Assembly (NCBI GenBank): GCA_046497275.1
Contig: JAWOFX010000108.1
Span: forward strand, 1-23,080
Source: Promethearchaeia archaeon
Lineage (GTDB): Archaea; Asgardarchaeota; Lokiarchaeia; Sigyniarchaeales; SOKP01
Length of the DNA: 23,080 bases
Reading direction: 5' to 3'
Position numbers and translations under genes: made by a program. Of the stretch, positions 137 to 4,533 are shown piece by piece. The notes beneath the pieces were generated by a model. It did not search any database. It saw only the letters and a list, made by a program, of their open reading frames with translations, and was not told the DNA's origin. The first letter of the stretch is position 1, and each line of letters opens with the position of its first letter.

Positions 137-1150
137 ATGACGGTTGATAGAAAAAAATTAAGCGCCCTTTTAGAATGGTATCAAAAAGAAATAGGAGAGG
201 ATTTAATTGCTGCCATAATTGTAAATAGAGATGGATTAATTATGGATGCAATATCCGGACCAACAGGAAAATCAGTGGAAGAAGATGTTGTTGGTGGTTT
301 AAGTTCTTTAGTGGAACCCGTTCTTAATCGAATTACAAAAGAATTCAGTTCTGGAGACTTTGGAGCAGGAACCTTTGATACAGATGAATATAGATTAATT
401 TTTTGTGAAGCAGGTGAGCATGCTATTTTCGTGACAGTTTTAGATGCTTTAGCAATGATAGATCCCGTATTTCCTGTAGCTTATTTAAGTGCAGAAAAGG
501 TTTCACGCATTTTCGATGGACGCCCTGTAAGTCCAGTAATCCCAAAAATTATCACGGCCAATAAAGGGGGAGAAATAGAAAAAGAGGTAGATAAACTCCG
601 TAAGATTAAAGCTAAAGCGAAGGAATATGCCTTCAAATTGATTTTGGGAGGAGATGGCGCGGTAGGAAAGACTAGTATGGTACATCGATTCGTTCAGGAT
701 TCTTTTCAAAAAGATTACAAAGCAACTATTGGAACTTCGATTATGAAAAAAGAGTGTAATTTTGAAGGCTTAGAATCATCGGTGAGATTCATAATTTGGG
801 ATTTGGCTGGACAAAGTCAATTTCGCCGAATAAGAAAGTCATATTTAGCAAATGCTGAAGCAGGTATACTAGTCTATGATGTAACTCGAAATAAAACATA
901 TGAAAATGTGAAGAATTGGTACGAAGAGATTAAAGAGATTACTCCTAAAATATCCCTCATTTTGGTGGGAAATAAAATAGATTTGGAAGATCAGAGGGAA
1001 GTATCTCATGAAGAGGGTGAAAAACTAGCTAAAGAATTAGGAATCTCGTACATAGAAACTTCCGCAAAGACTGGTGAAAATATTGATGATGCCTTTAAAA
1101 TGCTTGCTTTGGAGATTATAAAAAGGTTTTTTACCGCGGAAGAGGTTTAG
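137..1150 (+). CDS. Roadblock/LC7-like domain fused N-terminally to a Rab-like small GTPase
   Basis: Residues ~1-127 show the roadblock pattern (helix, IAAIIVNRDGLIM strand pair, helix, strands TFDT/RLIFCEAG/AIFVTV, helix). The C-terminal G domain has G1 GDGAVGKT, G2 DYKATIG, G3 WDLAGQ, G4 GNKID and G5 ETSAK. No C-terminal prenylation Cys. Confidence 0.88.
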   Translation: MTVDRKKLSALLEWYQKEIGEDLIAAIIVNRDGLIMDAISGPTGKSVEEDVVGGLSSLVEPVLNRITKEFSSGDFGAGTFDTDEYRLIFCEAGEHAIFVTVLDALAMIDPVFPVAYLSAEKVSRIFDGRPVSPVIPKIITANKGGEIEKEVDKLRKIKAKAKEYAFKLILGGDGAVGKTSMVHRFVQDSFQKDYKATIGTSIMKKECNFEGLESSVRFIIWDLAGQSQFRRIRKSYLANAEAGILVYDVTRNKTYENVKNWYEEIKEITPKISLILVGNKIDLEDQREVSHEEGEKLAKELGISYIETSAKTGENIDDAFKMLALEIIKRFFTAEEV

Positions 1151-1155
1151 GTTAA

Positions 1156-1258
1156 AGCCTCTGGGGGGATATATTCAAATGGAAAGAAGGTTTCCACAAA
1201 TTGAACCCCCGACAAATAGATTACGAATCTATCACTCTACGACCTGAGTTACAGAGGC
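1156..1258 (-). tRNA. tRNA-Thr(CGU) with a 30-nt T-loop intron (58/59); CCA not encoded
   Basis: Reverse complement: acceptor GCCTCTG/CAGAGGC, discriminator U73, D-stem ACTC/GAGT, anticodon stem ATAGA/TCTAT with loop TT-CGT-AA, variable loop TTGTC, T-stem GGGGG/CCCCC. Removing 1171-1200 restores T-loop TTCAAAT. C2-G71 and U73 match archaeal Thr identity elements. Confidence 0.92.
1171..1200 (-). other. tRNA intron, 30 nt, relaxed bulge-helix-bulge/loop junction
   Basis: Sequence TTTGTGGAAACCTTCTTTCCATTTGAATAT. Central helix GTTC/GAAT, 3-nt bulges AAT and ATA, internal stem GTGGAAA/TTTCCAT with a 5-nt loop. Confidence 0.85.
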
Positions 1259-1398
1259 ATTGATTATTATATAGTTCTTAAAGATTCAAAAAGAACTAAT
1301 TCTTATAAATAAATATAAAATTTTAATTTTGTGGTCTATATAATTGAGTAATTTTTTCTGTAAAATAATCCAATCAATATAATTGATCCATTAAACTA

Positions 1399-2427
1399 AT
1401 GAAGTCTAAAAAACTTTTGAAGGATATAGGTGAGATGAATCTCATTAGCTATATCGAAGAACTAATTTATAAAAATTCTGAAAAAAAAGTACTTCGGGAT
1501 GACGCTTTTTTCTATTCCTTGGATAAACTAAAAGAAAAAACATCCAATAAGATTACTTTAGTTTCTAATTCTGATATGCTAGTGTCTACTACTGATGTTC
1601 CAGAGAAAATGGCATTTTTTCAGATCGGGCGAAAATCAATAATTATGAATTTGAGTGATTTAATTGTAAAGGGAGTGAAGCCATCTGGATTAATTTTATC
1701 ATTAGGATTACCTGATACTATGATTTTAAAGGATTTTGAAGAACTAATGAATGGGGTTATCTCCTATTCTAATCAATTTGATCTTAACTATATTGGTGGA
1801 GATTTGAATCAGACTCAAGAAATTATCATTAATCCTACAGTGTTTGGATTTGCTGAGAATTCAAAGATAATATATAGAAAAGGGATGAATATTGAAGATA
1901 TAATATGTATAAATGGACATTTTGGGTTAACAGGAGTGGGGTTTGATATCCTACTTCGACAAGAAGGGAATTATGATAGTTTTCCAAAATATAAGGATGC
2001 ATTAGATAGTGTTTTAAAACCCTCTGATCTGGGATTGGAAGGAATTACACTTTCACAACATAAATTAGCAACAGCAAGTATTGATTCCTCCGATGGGTTG
2101 TCAAAATCCTTAAGAGAATTGAAATTTTCAAACCCTCAAGTGGGGATTGAAATATCATTGGATAAAAATCTCATTCATCCTAAGGCAATTGAATATTCCG
2201 AGGAATTTGATATTCCTATAGAAAAGTTGGTTCTAGACGCAGGTGAAGAATTTATTCATATGTTTTCGTTAAACGCTTCAGATTTTCAGAAAGCAAAAAC
2301 ATTAATAGAAAAGGAGGGAGGATCTCTTTTTAAGATTGGTAATGTGATTTCTGAACCAGAGATCTTTATTCGTAAAGATAATAAAAAGAGTGTTTTAAAA
2401 AGTGAAGGATATGAGCATTTTAAATAA
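1399..2427 (+). CDS. thiL: Thiamine-monophosphate kinase
   Basis: N-terminal IGEMNLI, DDA, NLSDL, IGGD, DSSDGL and GEEF motifs of the ThiL/PurM-like kinase family; 342 aa. Confidence 0.88.
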   Translation: MKSKKLLKDIGEMNLISYIEELIYKNSEKKVLRDDAFFYSLDKLKEKTSNKITLVSNSDMLVSTTDVPEKMAFFQIGRKSIIMNLSDLIVKGVKPSGLILSLGLPDTMILKDFEELMNGVISYSNQFDLNYIGGDLNQTQEIIINPTVFGFAENSKIIYRKGMNIEDIICINGHFGLTGVGFDILLRQEGNYDSFPKYKDALDSVLKPSDLGLEGITLSQHKLATASIDSSDGLSKSLRELKFSNPQVGIEISLDKNLIHPKAIEYSEEFDIPIEKLVLDAGEEFIHMFSLNASDFQKAKTLIEKEGGSLFKIGNVISEPEIFIRKDNKKSVLKSEGYEHFK

Positions 2428-2561
2428 GAATTAAGGAAATGGACTTTTTAAGTATTTGTGGTTATATTTTGGACGTGCAAGCATATTCTATTTAAAGATT
2501 ATGGTTTTATCTCTGCTTTAAATAAAATTTTTATATTATTGTGGATTTTAACTCTTAAGTT

Positions 2562-2574
2562 CGAAATTTTAAAG
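2562..2574 (+). promoter_or_regulatory. BRE + TATA box of the tRNA-Lys gene
   Basis: CGAAAT-TTTAAAG about 40 nt upstream of the mature tRNA 5' end. The same CGAAAT-TT(T)A arrangement occurs upstream of the GNAT gene. Confidence 0.55.
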
Positions 2575-2610
2575 TGTGTAGAAATAAAAAAGAACTTCTT
2601 TAAACCTAAT

Positions 2611-2717
2611 GGGCTATTAGCGCAGGCAGGTAGCGCAGCAGGCTTTTAACCTGAAGGTCGGGGGTTCAATGCTCAAGAAAAATCTTCTTGAATGAACAAA
2701 TCCCCCATAGCCCGCCA
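2611..2717 (+). tRNA. tRNA-Lys(UUU) with a 30-nt T-loop intron (58/59); CCA encoded
   Basis: Acceptor GGGCTAT/ATAGCCC, G73 then CCA (2715-2717), D-stem GCGC/GCGC, anticodon arm GCAGG-CT-TTT-AA-CCTGA (G27.A43 mismatch), T-stem GGGGG/CCCCC. Removing 2670-2699 restores T-loop TTCAAAT. Confidence 0.95.
2670..2699 (+). other. tRNA intron, 30 nt, bulge-helix-bulge junction
   Basis: Sequence TGCTCAAGAAAAATCTTCTTGAATGAACAA. Central 4-bp helix GTTC(2664-2667)/GAAC(2694-2697), bulges AAT (2668-2670) and AAA (2698-2700), inner stem TCAAGAA/TTCTTGA with a 5-nt loop. Confidence 0.9.
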
Positions 2718-3525: not shown

Positions 3526-4533
3526 ATGGCAGAATCAGAGTTTAAGCTTCCATCAGATGAACCAGAAGAAAAATTAGTAAAATCAGAGGATACTACAGAT
3601 CCAAACTATGGGAAGAACCCCGAAGAGAGAAGTATTAAAGAATTATTAGAATATGGAGTTATAAATCTAGATAAAGTAAGCGGTCCCACAAGTCATGAAG
3701 TAGTCTCTTGGATTAAAACAATGCTTGGGATAAAATCTGTTGGACATGGAGGAACCTTAGATCCAAAAGTGACAGGGATTTTACCAGTTGCATTGGGTAG
3801 GGCAACGAGAGTGTTATCTGCATTATTGAATTCTGGGAAAGAATACGTGTGTGTAATGTATCTTCATAATCCTGAACCTCAAAAAAAGATTGAGAAGATC
3901 TTGAATGTATTCACGGGTAAAATCTATCAGAGACCCCCTCTTAAATCTTCGGTAAGTAGAAAATTACGTATAAGAGAAATATATTATATTCAATTTTTAG
4001 AGATGAGAGAAAACTATGTTCTATTTCGCGTTGGATGCGAAGCAGGTACTTATATAAGAAAATTATGTTATGATTTGGGAGAGGCATTGTGTTCTGGTGC
4101 TCACATGGTTGAATTGAGAAGAACTAGAGTTGGATCTTTTAAGGAGGATAAATCTCTTGTTAGTCTTCAAAATCTTAAAGATGCTTTTACCATTTATCAA
4201 AAAGAGAATGATGATTTTTATTTAAAGAAAATTCTCCACCCTATGGAAAAGATGGTTAAACATTTACCAAAGATTTTTGTAAGGGATACTGCTGTAGATG
4301 CAGTTTGTCATGGAGCTGATTTAGCTGCTGCAGGAATCTGTAATATCGACGCACGAATAAAAAAAGGAATGAAAATAGCATTAATGACTCTTAAAAATGA
4401 ATTGATAGGGTTTGGTATAGCAGAAAAGAACGCAATGTCAATATATAAAGCTAAAAATGGAATAATGGTAAAAAGTGATAAAGTGTTTATGGAAAGAGGG
4501 ACGTATCCTCATTGGAAAGAGATAAAAGAATAA
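3526..4533 (+). CDS. cbf5: H/ACA RNA-guided / tRNA pseudouridine synthase Cbf5
   Basis: GVINLDKVSGPTSHEV, GHGGTLDPKVTG (catalytic Asp), GTYIRKLCYDLG, ELRRTRVG and a C-terminal PUA domain. Confidence 0.95.
   Translation: MAESEFKLPSDEPEEKLVKSEDTTDPNYGKNPEERSIKELLEYGVINLDKVSGPTSHEVVSWIKTMLGIKSVGHGGTLDPKVTGILPVALGRATRVLSALLNSGKEYVCVMYLHNPEPQKKIEKILNVFTGKIYQRPPLKSSVSRKLRIREIYYIQFLEMRENYVLFRVGCEAGTYIRKLCYDLGEALCSGAHMVELRRTRVGSFKEDKSLVSLQNLKDAFTIYQKENDDFYLKKILHPMEKMVKHLPKIFVRDTAVDAVCHGADLAAAGICNIDARIKKGMKIALMTLKNELIGFGIAEKNAMSIYKAKNGIMVKSDKVFMERGTYPHWKEIKE

Follow-up and report, generated by a model that had tools for sequence, protein, structure and literature searches.

In archaea the splicing endonuclease recognises introns by a motif termed bulge-helix-bulge (BHB), in which both cuts are placed two nucleotides 3′ of a 4-bp central helix strand (PMC4090602). 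BHB introns at non-canonical tRNA positions, including position 59/60 in the T-loop, have long been known (PMC4090602, PMC3239211), e.g., in pre-tRNA-Cys and pre-tRNA-Pro of ARMAN-2 (PMC3239211). Here we describe two neighbouring genes, for tRNA-Thr(CGU) and tRNA-Lys(UUU), in a 23,080-nt stretch of DNA of a Promethearchaeia archaeon (contig JAWOFX010000108.1, positions 1 to 23,080; the whole stretch is called the window), each of which is interrupted by 30 nt between tRNA positions 58 and 59. Like the described 59/60 introns, these inserts lie inside the T-loop, appear to be of the endonuclease type, and offer their 3′ end to a part of the T-loop for pairing as the central helix. They differ from them in the site, which is one nucleotide upstream, and in a length that is almost fixed at 30 nt. 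As a consequence of the shift by one nucleotide the central helix begins with G53, which requires the T-stem to slip or to open in part.

Intron families that are common to different tRNAs have been described for Thermoproteales under the term "large-scale intron transposition" (Fujishima 2010, as recounted in PMC4033280 and PMC4090602). As far as these accounts go, the two systems have in common that similar introns occur in tRNAs of different identity and that the BHB requirement filters where introns persist. The phylum is different, however, and all copies described here are at one site, while those of Thermoproteales occupy canonical and non-canonical sites. An identity of at least 80% across tRNA identities in one genome, a feature of the Thermoproteales type, is reached by few pairs, which form two clear clusters in relatives (genomes G033 and G153), but not by the pair in the window, which is identical at 12/30 positions.

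For Asgard archaea, a study of 2024 described genomes in which 92–95% of the tRNA genes bear introns (PMC11291895). According to a 2026 preprint the introns called in Asgard genomes are found mainly at 37/38 and in the T-arm, the T-arm inserts fitting the canonical BHB best (10.64898/2026.10.13.758758). A preliminary description of the present DNA, made from the letters alone, had pointed to a T-loop intron family in a probable Asgard lineage without being able to say whether it had been reported. Its novelty is rated too high there, since non-canonical and T-arm tRNA introns of Asgard archaea are already published in these two studies (PMC11291895; 10.64898/2026.10.13.758758). The introns presented here belong to the same superphylum and share the abundance of non-canonical introns with those reports. 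The published studies focus on Atabeyarchaeia, Freyarchaeia, and Jordiarchaeia, where intron families across tRNAs were nearly absent (1.5% at 80% identity), whereas the present Lokiarchaeial family is pervaded by one class of common sequence and structure at a single site, and some copies in different tRNAs are more than 80% identical. The class itself, defined by the 58/59 site, the fixed 30 nt, G53 in the central helix, a conserved loop U-C, near-universal presence in one Lokiarchaeial family and some cross-tRNA copies, appears to be unreported in the papers that we searched. We consider it likely that both introns of the window belong to one stereotyped 30-nt 58/59 class, which is typical of one Lokiarchaeial family and resides in many tRNAs, that their resemblance is mostly shared design, and that the class was probably distributed by copying of the intron from time to time between tRNA genes and then inherited vertically, with compensatory changes.

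Two tRNA genes interrupted in the T-loop

In the unspliced window neither ARAGORN nor Rfam at the gathering score found a tRNA. Run in E-value mode, the Rfam tRNA model gave matches at 1204–1258 on the minus strand (28.1 bits) and at 2611–2675 on the plus strand (27.4 bits), which are below the cut-off of 29 and both end at the T-loop. After removal of the 30 nt, ARAGORN calls tRNA-Thr(CGU) and tRNA-Lys(UUU), and the spliced forms adopt a cloverleaf fold in which UUCAAAU is the 7-nt T-loop. This confirms the preliminary description in its claim of two real tRNA genes with 30-nt introns at the non-canonical site 58/59. Its details were correct as well: both genes have the same exon context (GUC-GGGGG-UUCAA before and AU-CCCCC after the intron), the introns share 12/30 letters, intron positions 4–10 pair with 16–22 around a 5-nt loop, five of the pairs differ between the two, and both introns end with UGAA(C/U)A.

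The tRNA-Thr(CGU) gene extends over positions 1156–1258 of the minus strand (103 nt including the intron), has no encoded CCA, and has the discriminator U at 1156. Its 5′ exon (1201–1258), which was read from the sequence and is covered by the partial Rfam match, contains tRNA positions 1–58 with UUCAA at the end. The intron (1171–1200) has its inner hairpin at 1179–1197, and GAAU at 1173–1176 pairs with G53–C56 (1203–1206). The 3′ exon (1156–1170), read from the sequence and called by ARAGORN after splicing, comprises A59-U60, the 3′ strands of T-stem and acceptor stem, and the discriminator. The tRNA-Lys(UUU) gene with its intron lies on the plus strand at 2611–2717 and ends with an encoded CCA (2715–2717). 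Its 5′ exon (2611–2669, within the partial Rfam match) also has UUCAA at the end and is followed by the intron (2670–2699), with the inner hairpin at 2673–2691 and GAAC at 2694–2697 pairing with G53–C56 (2664–2667), and by the 3′ exon (2700–2714), which was read from the sequence.

For Thr, 58/59 is the sole cut that gives the 7-nt T-loop UUCAAAU. The Lys boundary is ambiguous in sequence from 55/56 to 58/59, and the BHB geometry selects 58/59. A 59/60 reading of both introns was rejected; the T-loop would then have 9 nt, unlike that of the known T-loop 59/60 class. The Thr(CGU) body at 1156–1258 is the only one found in the genome, and the same is true for the Lys(UUU) body, the other match being Lys(CUU) on contig C178. 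The genome (3.85 Mb in 188 contigs, 30.4% GC; the window is contig C32) is 98.9% complete, so that these sole genes must be functional.

Judged by their sequence, both inserts probably represent the intron type that is cut by the archaeal BHB splicing endonuclease. The central helix has 4 bp, formed by G53-U54-U55-C56 and the intron letters GAAY (positions 25–28, Y being a pyrimidine), and is paired in 98.5% of the cells in the alignment of 67 distinct copies described below. It is flanked by two bulges of 3 nt each, A57-A58 with intron nucleotide i1, and i29-i30 with A59. This strict 58/59 geometry is present in six tRNA genes of the genome, i.e., both genes of the window and four others, with introns of 30–31 nt.

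In the mechanism that we propose, pairing of GAAY to G53-C56 would set up the central helix between the two bulges, and the inner hairpin would be formed by intron positions 2–24 (7–9 bp, 5-nt loop). The rest of the T-stem would close the motif after a slip of one position, with G49-G52 pairing to U60 and C61-C63; such a one-step slip is possible because of the G5/C5 T-stem. A two-subunit EndA would cut after A58 and after i30, RtcB would join the exons, and the T-stem would snap back so that the normal T-loop UUCAAAU can form. The genome has two EndA paralogues (PF01974; open frames of 201 and 207 amino acids; regions C46:30392–30622 and C168:8310–8564), which may constitute an alpha/beta EndA pair, and two RtcB ligase genes. 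The slipped register is supported by intron position 28, where nearly all copies have a pyrimidine that can pair with G53. This holds for 6/6 58/59 introns of the genome, which were found without using position 28, for eight of nine 58/59-type matches of a motif-agnostic pattern census (by eye), and for 63/67 distinct copies collected with a covariance model; in the latter set position 29 is A in 65/67.

Distribution, covariation and probable copying of the 58/59 introns

This covariance model (R1) covers T-arm and intron and was built from eight sequences, namely six copies of the genome and three of relatives that had been found by exon similarity only, minus one 31-nt copy of the genome. 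R1 matches 127 of the 135 genomes of the same GTDB family, with one to six matches each and about 325 in total. When it was applied to an even sample of the phylum, 24/25 genomes of the family had a match versus 11/125 genomes of other Asgard families. The matches outside the family are single and weaker per genome, and eight of them that we inspected were mostly 29–31-nt introns at 58/59 with GC-richer stems. The Lys intron of the window is the best R1 match of its genome (70.6 bits). We collected 75 copies (67 distinct) from at least 18 host tRNA types; the types were defined by the acceptor stem, and ARAGORN identities are unreliable where a tRNA has further introns. Nearly all hosts have the same T-arm letters, and the same T-arm is also present without an intron in many tRNAs. 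On a metagenome contig (L229) the same Thr(-)/Lys(+) pair was found, with introns identical to those of the window at 25/30 (Thr) and 28/30 (Lys) positions. A pattern scan of viral contigs gave no match. The presence in at least 18 host types and 127/135 genomes confirms that a T-loop intron family exists, as had been surmised from the two genes alone.

The hairpin is conserved as a structure. In the seed alignment of eight copies 90.4% of the pair cells are paired versus 48–59% in slid alignments, and 9/9 hairpin pairs have changed on both sides. Among the 67 distinct copies 92.8% of the pair cells are paired, compared to 46–60% when the 3′ partners are slid by 1–3 columns. All nine inner-helix pairs (9/9) covary in this larger set, with two-sided changes in 204 pair cells, and the covariation score exceeded that of every shuffle. 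Less biased is a check on orthologous Thr(CGU) introns of three genera, the first two relatives having been identified from the similarity of their exons: four pairs differ on both sides, and the helix is maintained. Covariation in the larger alignment together with these compensatory changes strongly supports the earlier view that the helix is under selection for structure.

Searching the genome itself by a T-arm scan, with splicing of the candidates and subsequent ARAGORN analysis, revealed T-loop inserts in at least 13 tRNA genes. Six belong to the 58/59 class (30–31 nt), about six to a 59/60 class (29–47 nt, strict hBHBh′ on the native T-stem), and one or two further inserts have no clear 58/59 or 59/60 placing. 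The canonical 37/38 introns called by ARAGORN are also 29–31 nt long. Near two contig ends (G000:C33:75 and G000:C165:12864 (-)) the same tRNA-like gene is present in identical form, with a T-loop insert of 32 nt; ARAGORN calls it "SeC/UCA" after splicing. A strict BHB was not found at a boundary that gives a normal T-loop, and the gene may be an assembly repeat. Thr(CGU) orthologues (L033/L065, L042, L045, L048, L052, L056) carry extra introns elsewhere in the gene, at 37/38 (30 nt) in G017, in the D-loop in several genera and in the variable region in genus g3, so that the intron load per Thr(CGU) gene is high and variable across the family.

The preliminary description had assumed that one ancestral intron spread between tRNAs, and had based this on the Lys and Thr introns of the window. 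This pair does not by itself support the assumption. All 12 matches between the two introns fall on family-conserved columns, and outside the motif-fixed positions 7/23 letters are identical, which equals the composition expectation of 0.30 and is below the cross-host mean of the family (0.48). Such "covariation" would also be seen between two hairpins without common origin if both followed this fixed design, and the Lys/Thr pair alone can therefore not show homology. Support for spreading comes only from relatives. In a cluster within one genus, the Thr(CGU) and Ile(UAU) introns are 83–91% identical (in G153, 91% of the variable positions). A second cluster, in another genus, comprises Lys(CUU), Arg(CCU) and an Arg(GCG)-like tRNA; in G033 the Lys-CUU and Arg-CCU introns are identical at 26/30 positions. 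The tRNA bodies are unrelated in both clusters, and we rejected whole-gene duplication as a source of the shared introns for this reason. In G033 the T-stems also differ (GGGGG/CCCCC in Lys-CUU versus GAGGG/CCCUC in Arg-CCU). Near-identical introns in unrelated bodies and between differing T-stems argue for occasional copying of the intron itself, and the sequences suggest that such copying between tRNA genes took place. Over all cross-host pairs, identity at variable positions is at least 80% in 6.9% within a genome, in 4.6% within a genus, and in 0.4% between genera, compared to 0.35% under a position-and-pair profile null.

The T-loop intron of Thr is lacking in three congeners, and in three congeners (G003, G005, G006) Lys(UUU) has a GUGGG/CCCAC(U) T-arm together with an unrelated 59/60 intron. 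Compared with the G5 stem and 58/59 intron of Lys(UUU) in the window, this means that the T-arm region was exchanged or re-invaded within the genus. The orthologous Thr and Lys genes point to intron turnover, by gain or loss. The neighbouring position of the two genes, to which the preliminary description had drawn attention, is irrelevant, since the syntenic Thr and Lys genes of congeners have no T-loop intron or a different 59/60 intron. In the same genus (L004 in G006, L007 in G005, L029 in G003), the 59/60 introns of Lys(UUU) and Lys(CUU) are homologous, with the core UAUUC..UCGAAUAGA, and lie in a GUGGG T-stem.

Splice geometry and origin of the introns

Several points weigh against the view that the introns of the window are spliced in the slipped register and belong to a class spread by copying. 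The two introns have no specific similarity to each other, and the 2026 preprint saw no general intron-copying signal in its focal Asgard classes (10.64898/2026.10.13.758758). Related genomes share the same copying events; the excess of similar pairs rests on two lineage-specific clusters of non-independent pairs and therefore reflects about two events, not a statistic. The alignment of the collected copies (A2) was fitted to the model, and the pair counts and the pyrimidine at position 28 lean towards it. The minimum free energy (MFE) structures predicted by ViennaRNA keep the native T-stem in both genes and pair U54-A57 with intron UGAA, and for both introns in isolation the canonical BHB conformer is 5–6 kcal/mol less stable than the MFE. 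The inner helix h′ is strongly backed by covariation; the outer helix h would be formed only with the T-stem slip, 5–6 kcal/mol above the MFE. The folds of both pre-tRNAs would suit a relaxed-motif substrate, in which the native 5-bp T-stem stays intact without any slip, only U54-C56 (and A57, given a U at intron position 24) are paired to the intron, and EndA cuts bulges of 3 nt and 5 nt. Asgard EndA is indeed reported as a broad-specificity (alpha-beta)2 type, the L1 loop of which permits relaxed motifs (PMC5829648), and 58/59 introns occur also within poorly slipping T-stems such as GCGAG/CUCGC. However, if the helix ends with U54:A27, canonical geometry puts the 3′ cut one nucleotide too early. 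Moreover, the position 28 pyrimidine of 6/6 copies of the genome and 8/9 census matches can pair with G53, and a G52·U60 pair is possible in 66/67 copies. We therefore consider splicing without a slip unlikely. Standard tRNA finders reject both genes, as they would if these were pseudogenes or if the 30 nt were kept in the mature tRNA as an expanded T-loop. Yet each gene is the only one for its anticodon, the exons hardly vary between genera, unlike the intron helix, which covaries, and the inserts have exact BHB geometry. From established tRNA structure, a T-loop of 37 nt would abolish T54-A58 and the contacts between T-loop and D-loop. Defunct genes or a retained insert are thus hardly credible.

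Insertions could also have occurred independently and without any copying, and could have converged on the single spliceable design of 1 nt, a hairpin of about 9 bp, GAAY, and 2 nt; with a purine-bearing 5′ arm and a pyrimidine-bearing 3′ arm, the hairpin would not mispair with the G5/C5 T-stem. The numbers between genera agree with this: cross-host identity is 0.478 (0.4% of the pairs reach 80%) compared to 0.50 (0.35%) for a position-profile null, and orthology raises the identity between introns of different genera only slightly (0.52 versus 0.48 for non-orthologous introns). Other Asgard families have 29–31-nt introns at 58/59 with quite different GC-rich stems, the canonical 37/38 introns of the genome are of the same length, and the variable positions of the window pair are at composition level. 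Convergence alone does not explain the two clusters, however, in which unrelated bodies (G153 Thr/Ile, G033 Lys/Arg) share 83–91% of the variable positions including stem letters, 13–20 times the null rate. It also leaves open why loop letters U14 and C15 are kept in 35/38 and 31/38 clusters that were collected regardless of the hairpin, when the BHB geometry needs neither. A purely convergent origin is therefore a serious but doubtful explanation. The shared unit might also be the whole T-arm with its intron, transferred by gene conversion across the identical flanks GGGGGUUCAA...AUCCCCC, the intron not being mobile alone. In agreement with this, Lys(UUU) has the G5/C5 T-arm with a 58/59 intron in the window and the GUGGG/CCCAC(U) T-arm with the unrelated 59/60 intron in G003, G005, and G006, and the T-arm is uniform in nearly all hosts. 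On the other hand, the T-stems of G033 Lys-CUU and Arg-CCU differ around introns identical at 26/30 positions, and many tRNAs have the same T-arm without an intron. Conversion of the T-arm is accordingly improbable.

Loop letters, gene neighbourhood and implications

A metagenome pattern scan, in which the exon and GAAYA letters were fixed and 24 intron positions were free, gave 76 matches on low-GC contigs in 38 clusters. In the hairpin loop of this 58/59 class, U occupies position 14 in 35/38 clusters and C position 15 in 31/38, whereas the stems differ freely. BHB recognition needs no loop letters. The 5-nt loops of mini-introns very often end with U-C (AUUUC, GAUUC, AAAUC, ACUUC), whatever the host tRNA or stem, on metagenome loci L196–L275; this was counted for 58/59 introns only. 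Similar U-C loops were seen by eye in 59/60 introns of the genome (C33:4670, C85:8760, C158). A gene for RNase HII (G000:C102:15411-16004 (-), locus L195) has a 31-nt BHB-like insert after the codons D-E-A-G. Exonic UGGG pairs with intronic CCCA between 3-nt bulges, the inner hairpin has the loop AUAUC (similar by eye), and removal of the insert restores DEAG-RGPV.

The 58/59 insert may be one face of a mobile 30-nt Lokiarchaeia mini-intron that is propagated by copy-and-paste, has its loop U-C read by a dedicated factor, and colonises any RNA site offering a 4-nt partner to its 3′ end, which would include sites in many tRNAs. We put this forward as a tentative idea that is more probably wrong than right. 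When an intron-only nhmmer profile was run against the whole genome, only weak matches without hairpin or BHB were obtained outside tRNAs, so that an occurrence of the class outside T-loops is unsupported. Three crude genome-wide scans for 27–34-nt BHB hairpins gave alike numbers for reversed and real sequence (2029 versus 2082, 18 versus 16, and 53 versus 49) and are uninformative in this AT-rich genome.

Between the two tRNA genes lies a gene related to AIR synthase (ThiL-like, PF00586) at 1399–2427 on the plus strand. It is outside the intron system and is a marker of the conserved Thr-gene-Lys synteny: in many relatives Thr and Lys matches are about 1.3–1.9 kb apart on the same contigs. 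Directly upstream of tRNA-Thr a small GTPase of the Ras/Rab family with an N-terminal extension of about 150 amino acids is encoded (137–1150, plus strand), which is typical Asgard gene content. This gene and the names of the relatives (Promethearchaeota/Promethearchaeia, Lokiarchaeia lineage) agree with the Asgard lineage that had been considered probable from the letters. A Cbf5/TruB-type pseudouridine synthase (DKCLD, TruB_N, and PUA domains) is encoded 0.8 kb from tRNA-Lys (3526–4533, plus strand) in an uninterrupted frame. In crenarchaea the mRNA of this family holds the classic BHB mRNA intron.

For annotation, it matters that default ARAGORN and Rfam miss both tRNA genes; Asgard gene sets of this kind will look incomplete. 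The missed tRNA-Lys(UUU) is the sole tRNA for AAA, a very common codon at 30% GC. For the biochemistry of EndA, the introns raise the question of how a central helix can borrow G53 from the T-stem, and why a loop dinucleotide is kept that BHB recognition should not need. How introns arrive in Asgard tRNAs is an open question that the 2026 preprint states explicitly (10.64898/2026.10.13.758758), and a mobile mini-intron, if it exists, would be the missing route. Orthologues have the intron in some cases only, and a few unrelated tRNAs contain near-identical copies, so that gain, loss and copying can be dated. An intron class that is easily modelled, sits at one site and occurs in almost all genomes of the family is a tractable system for studying intron origin.

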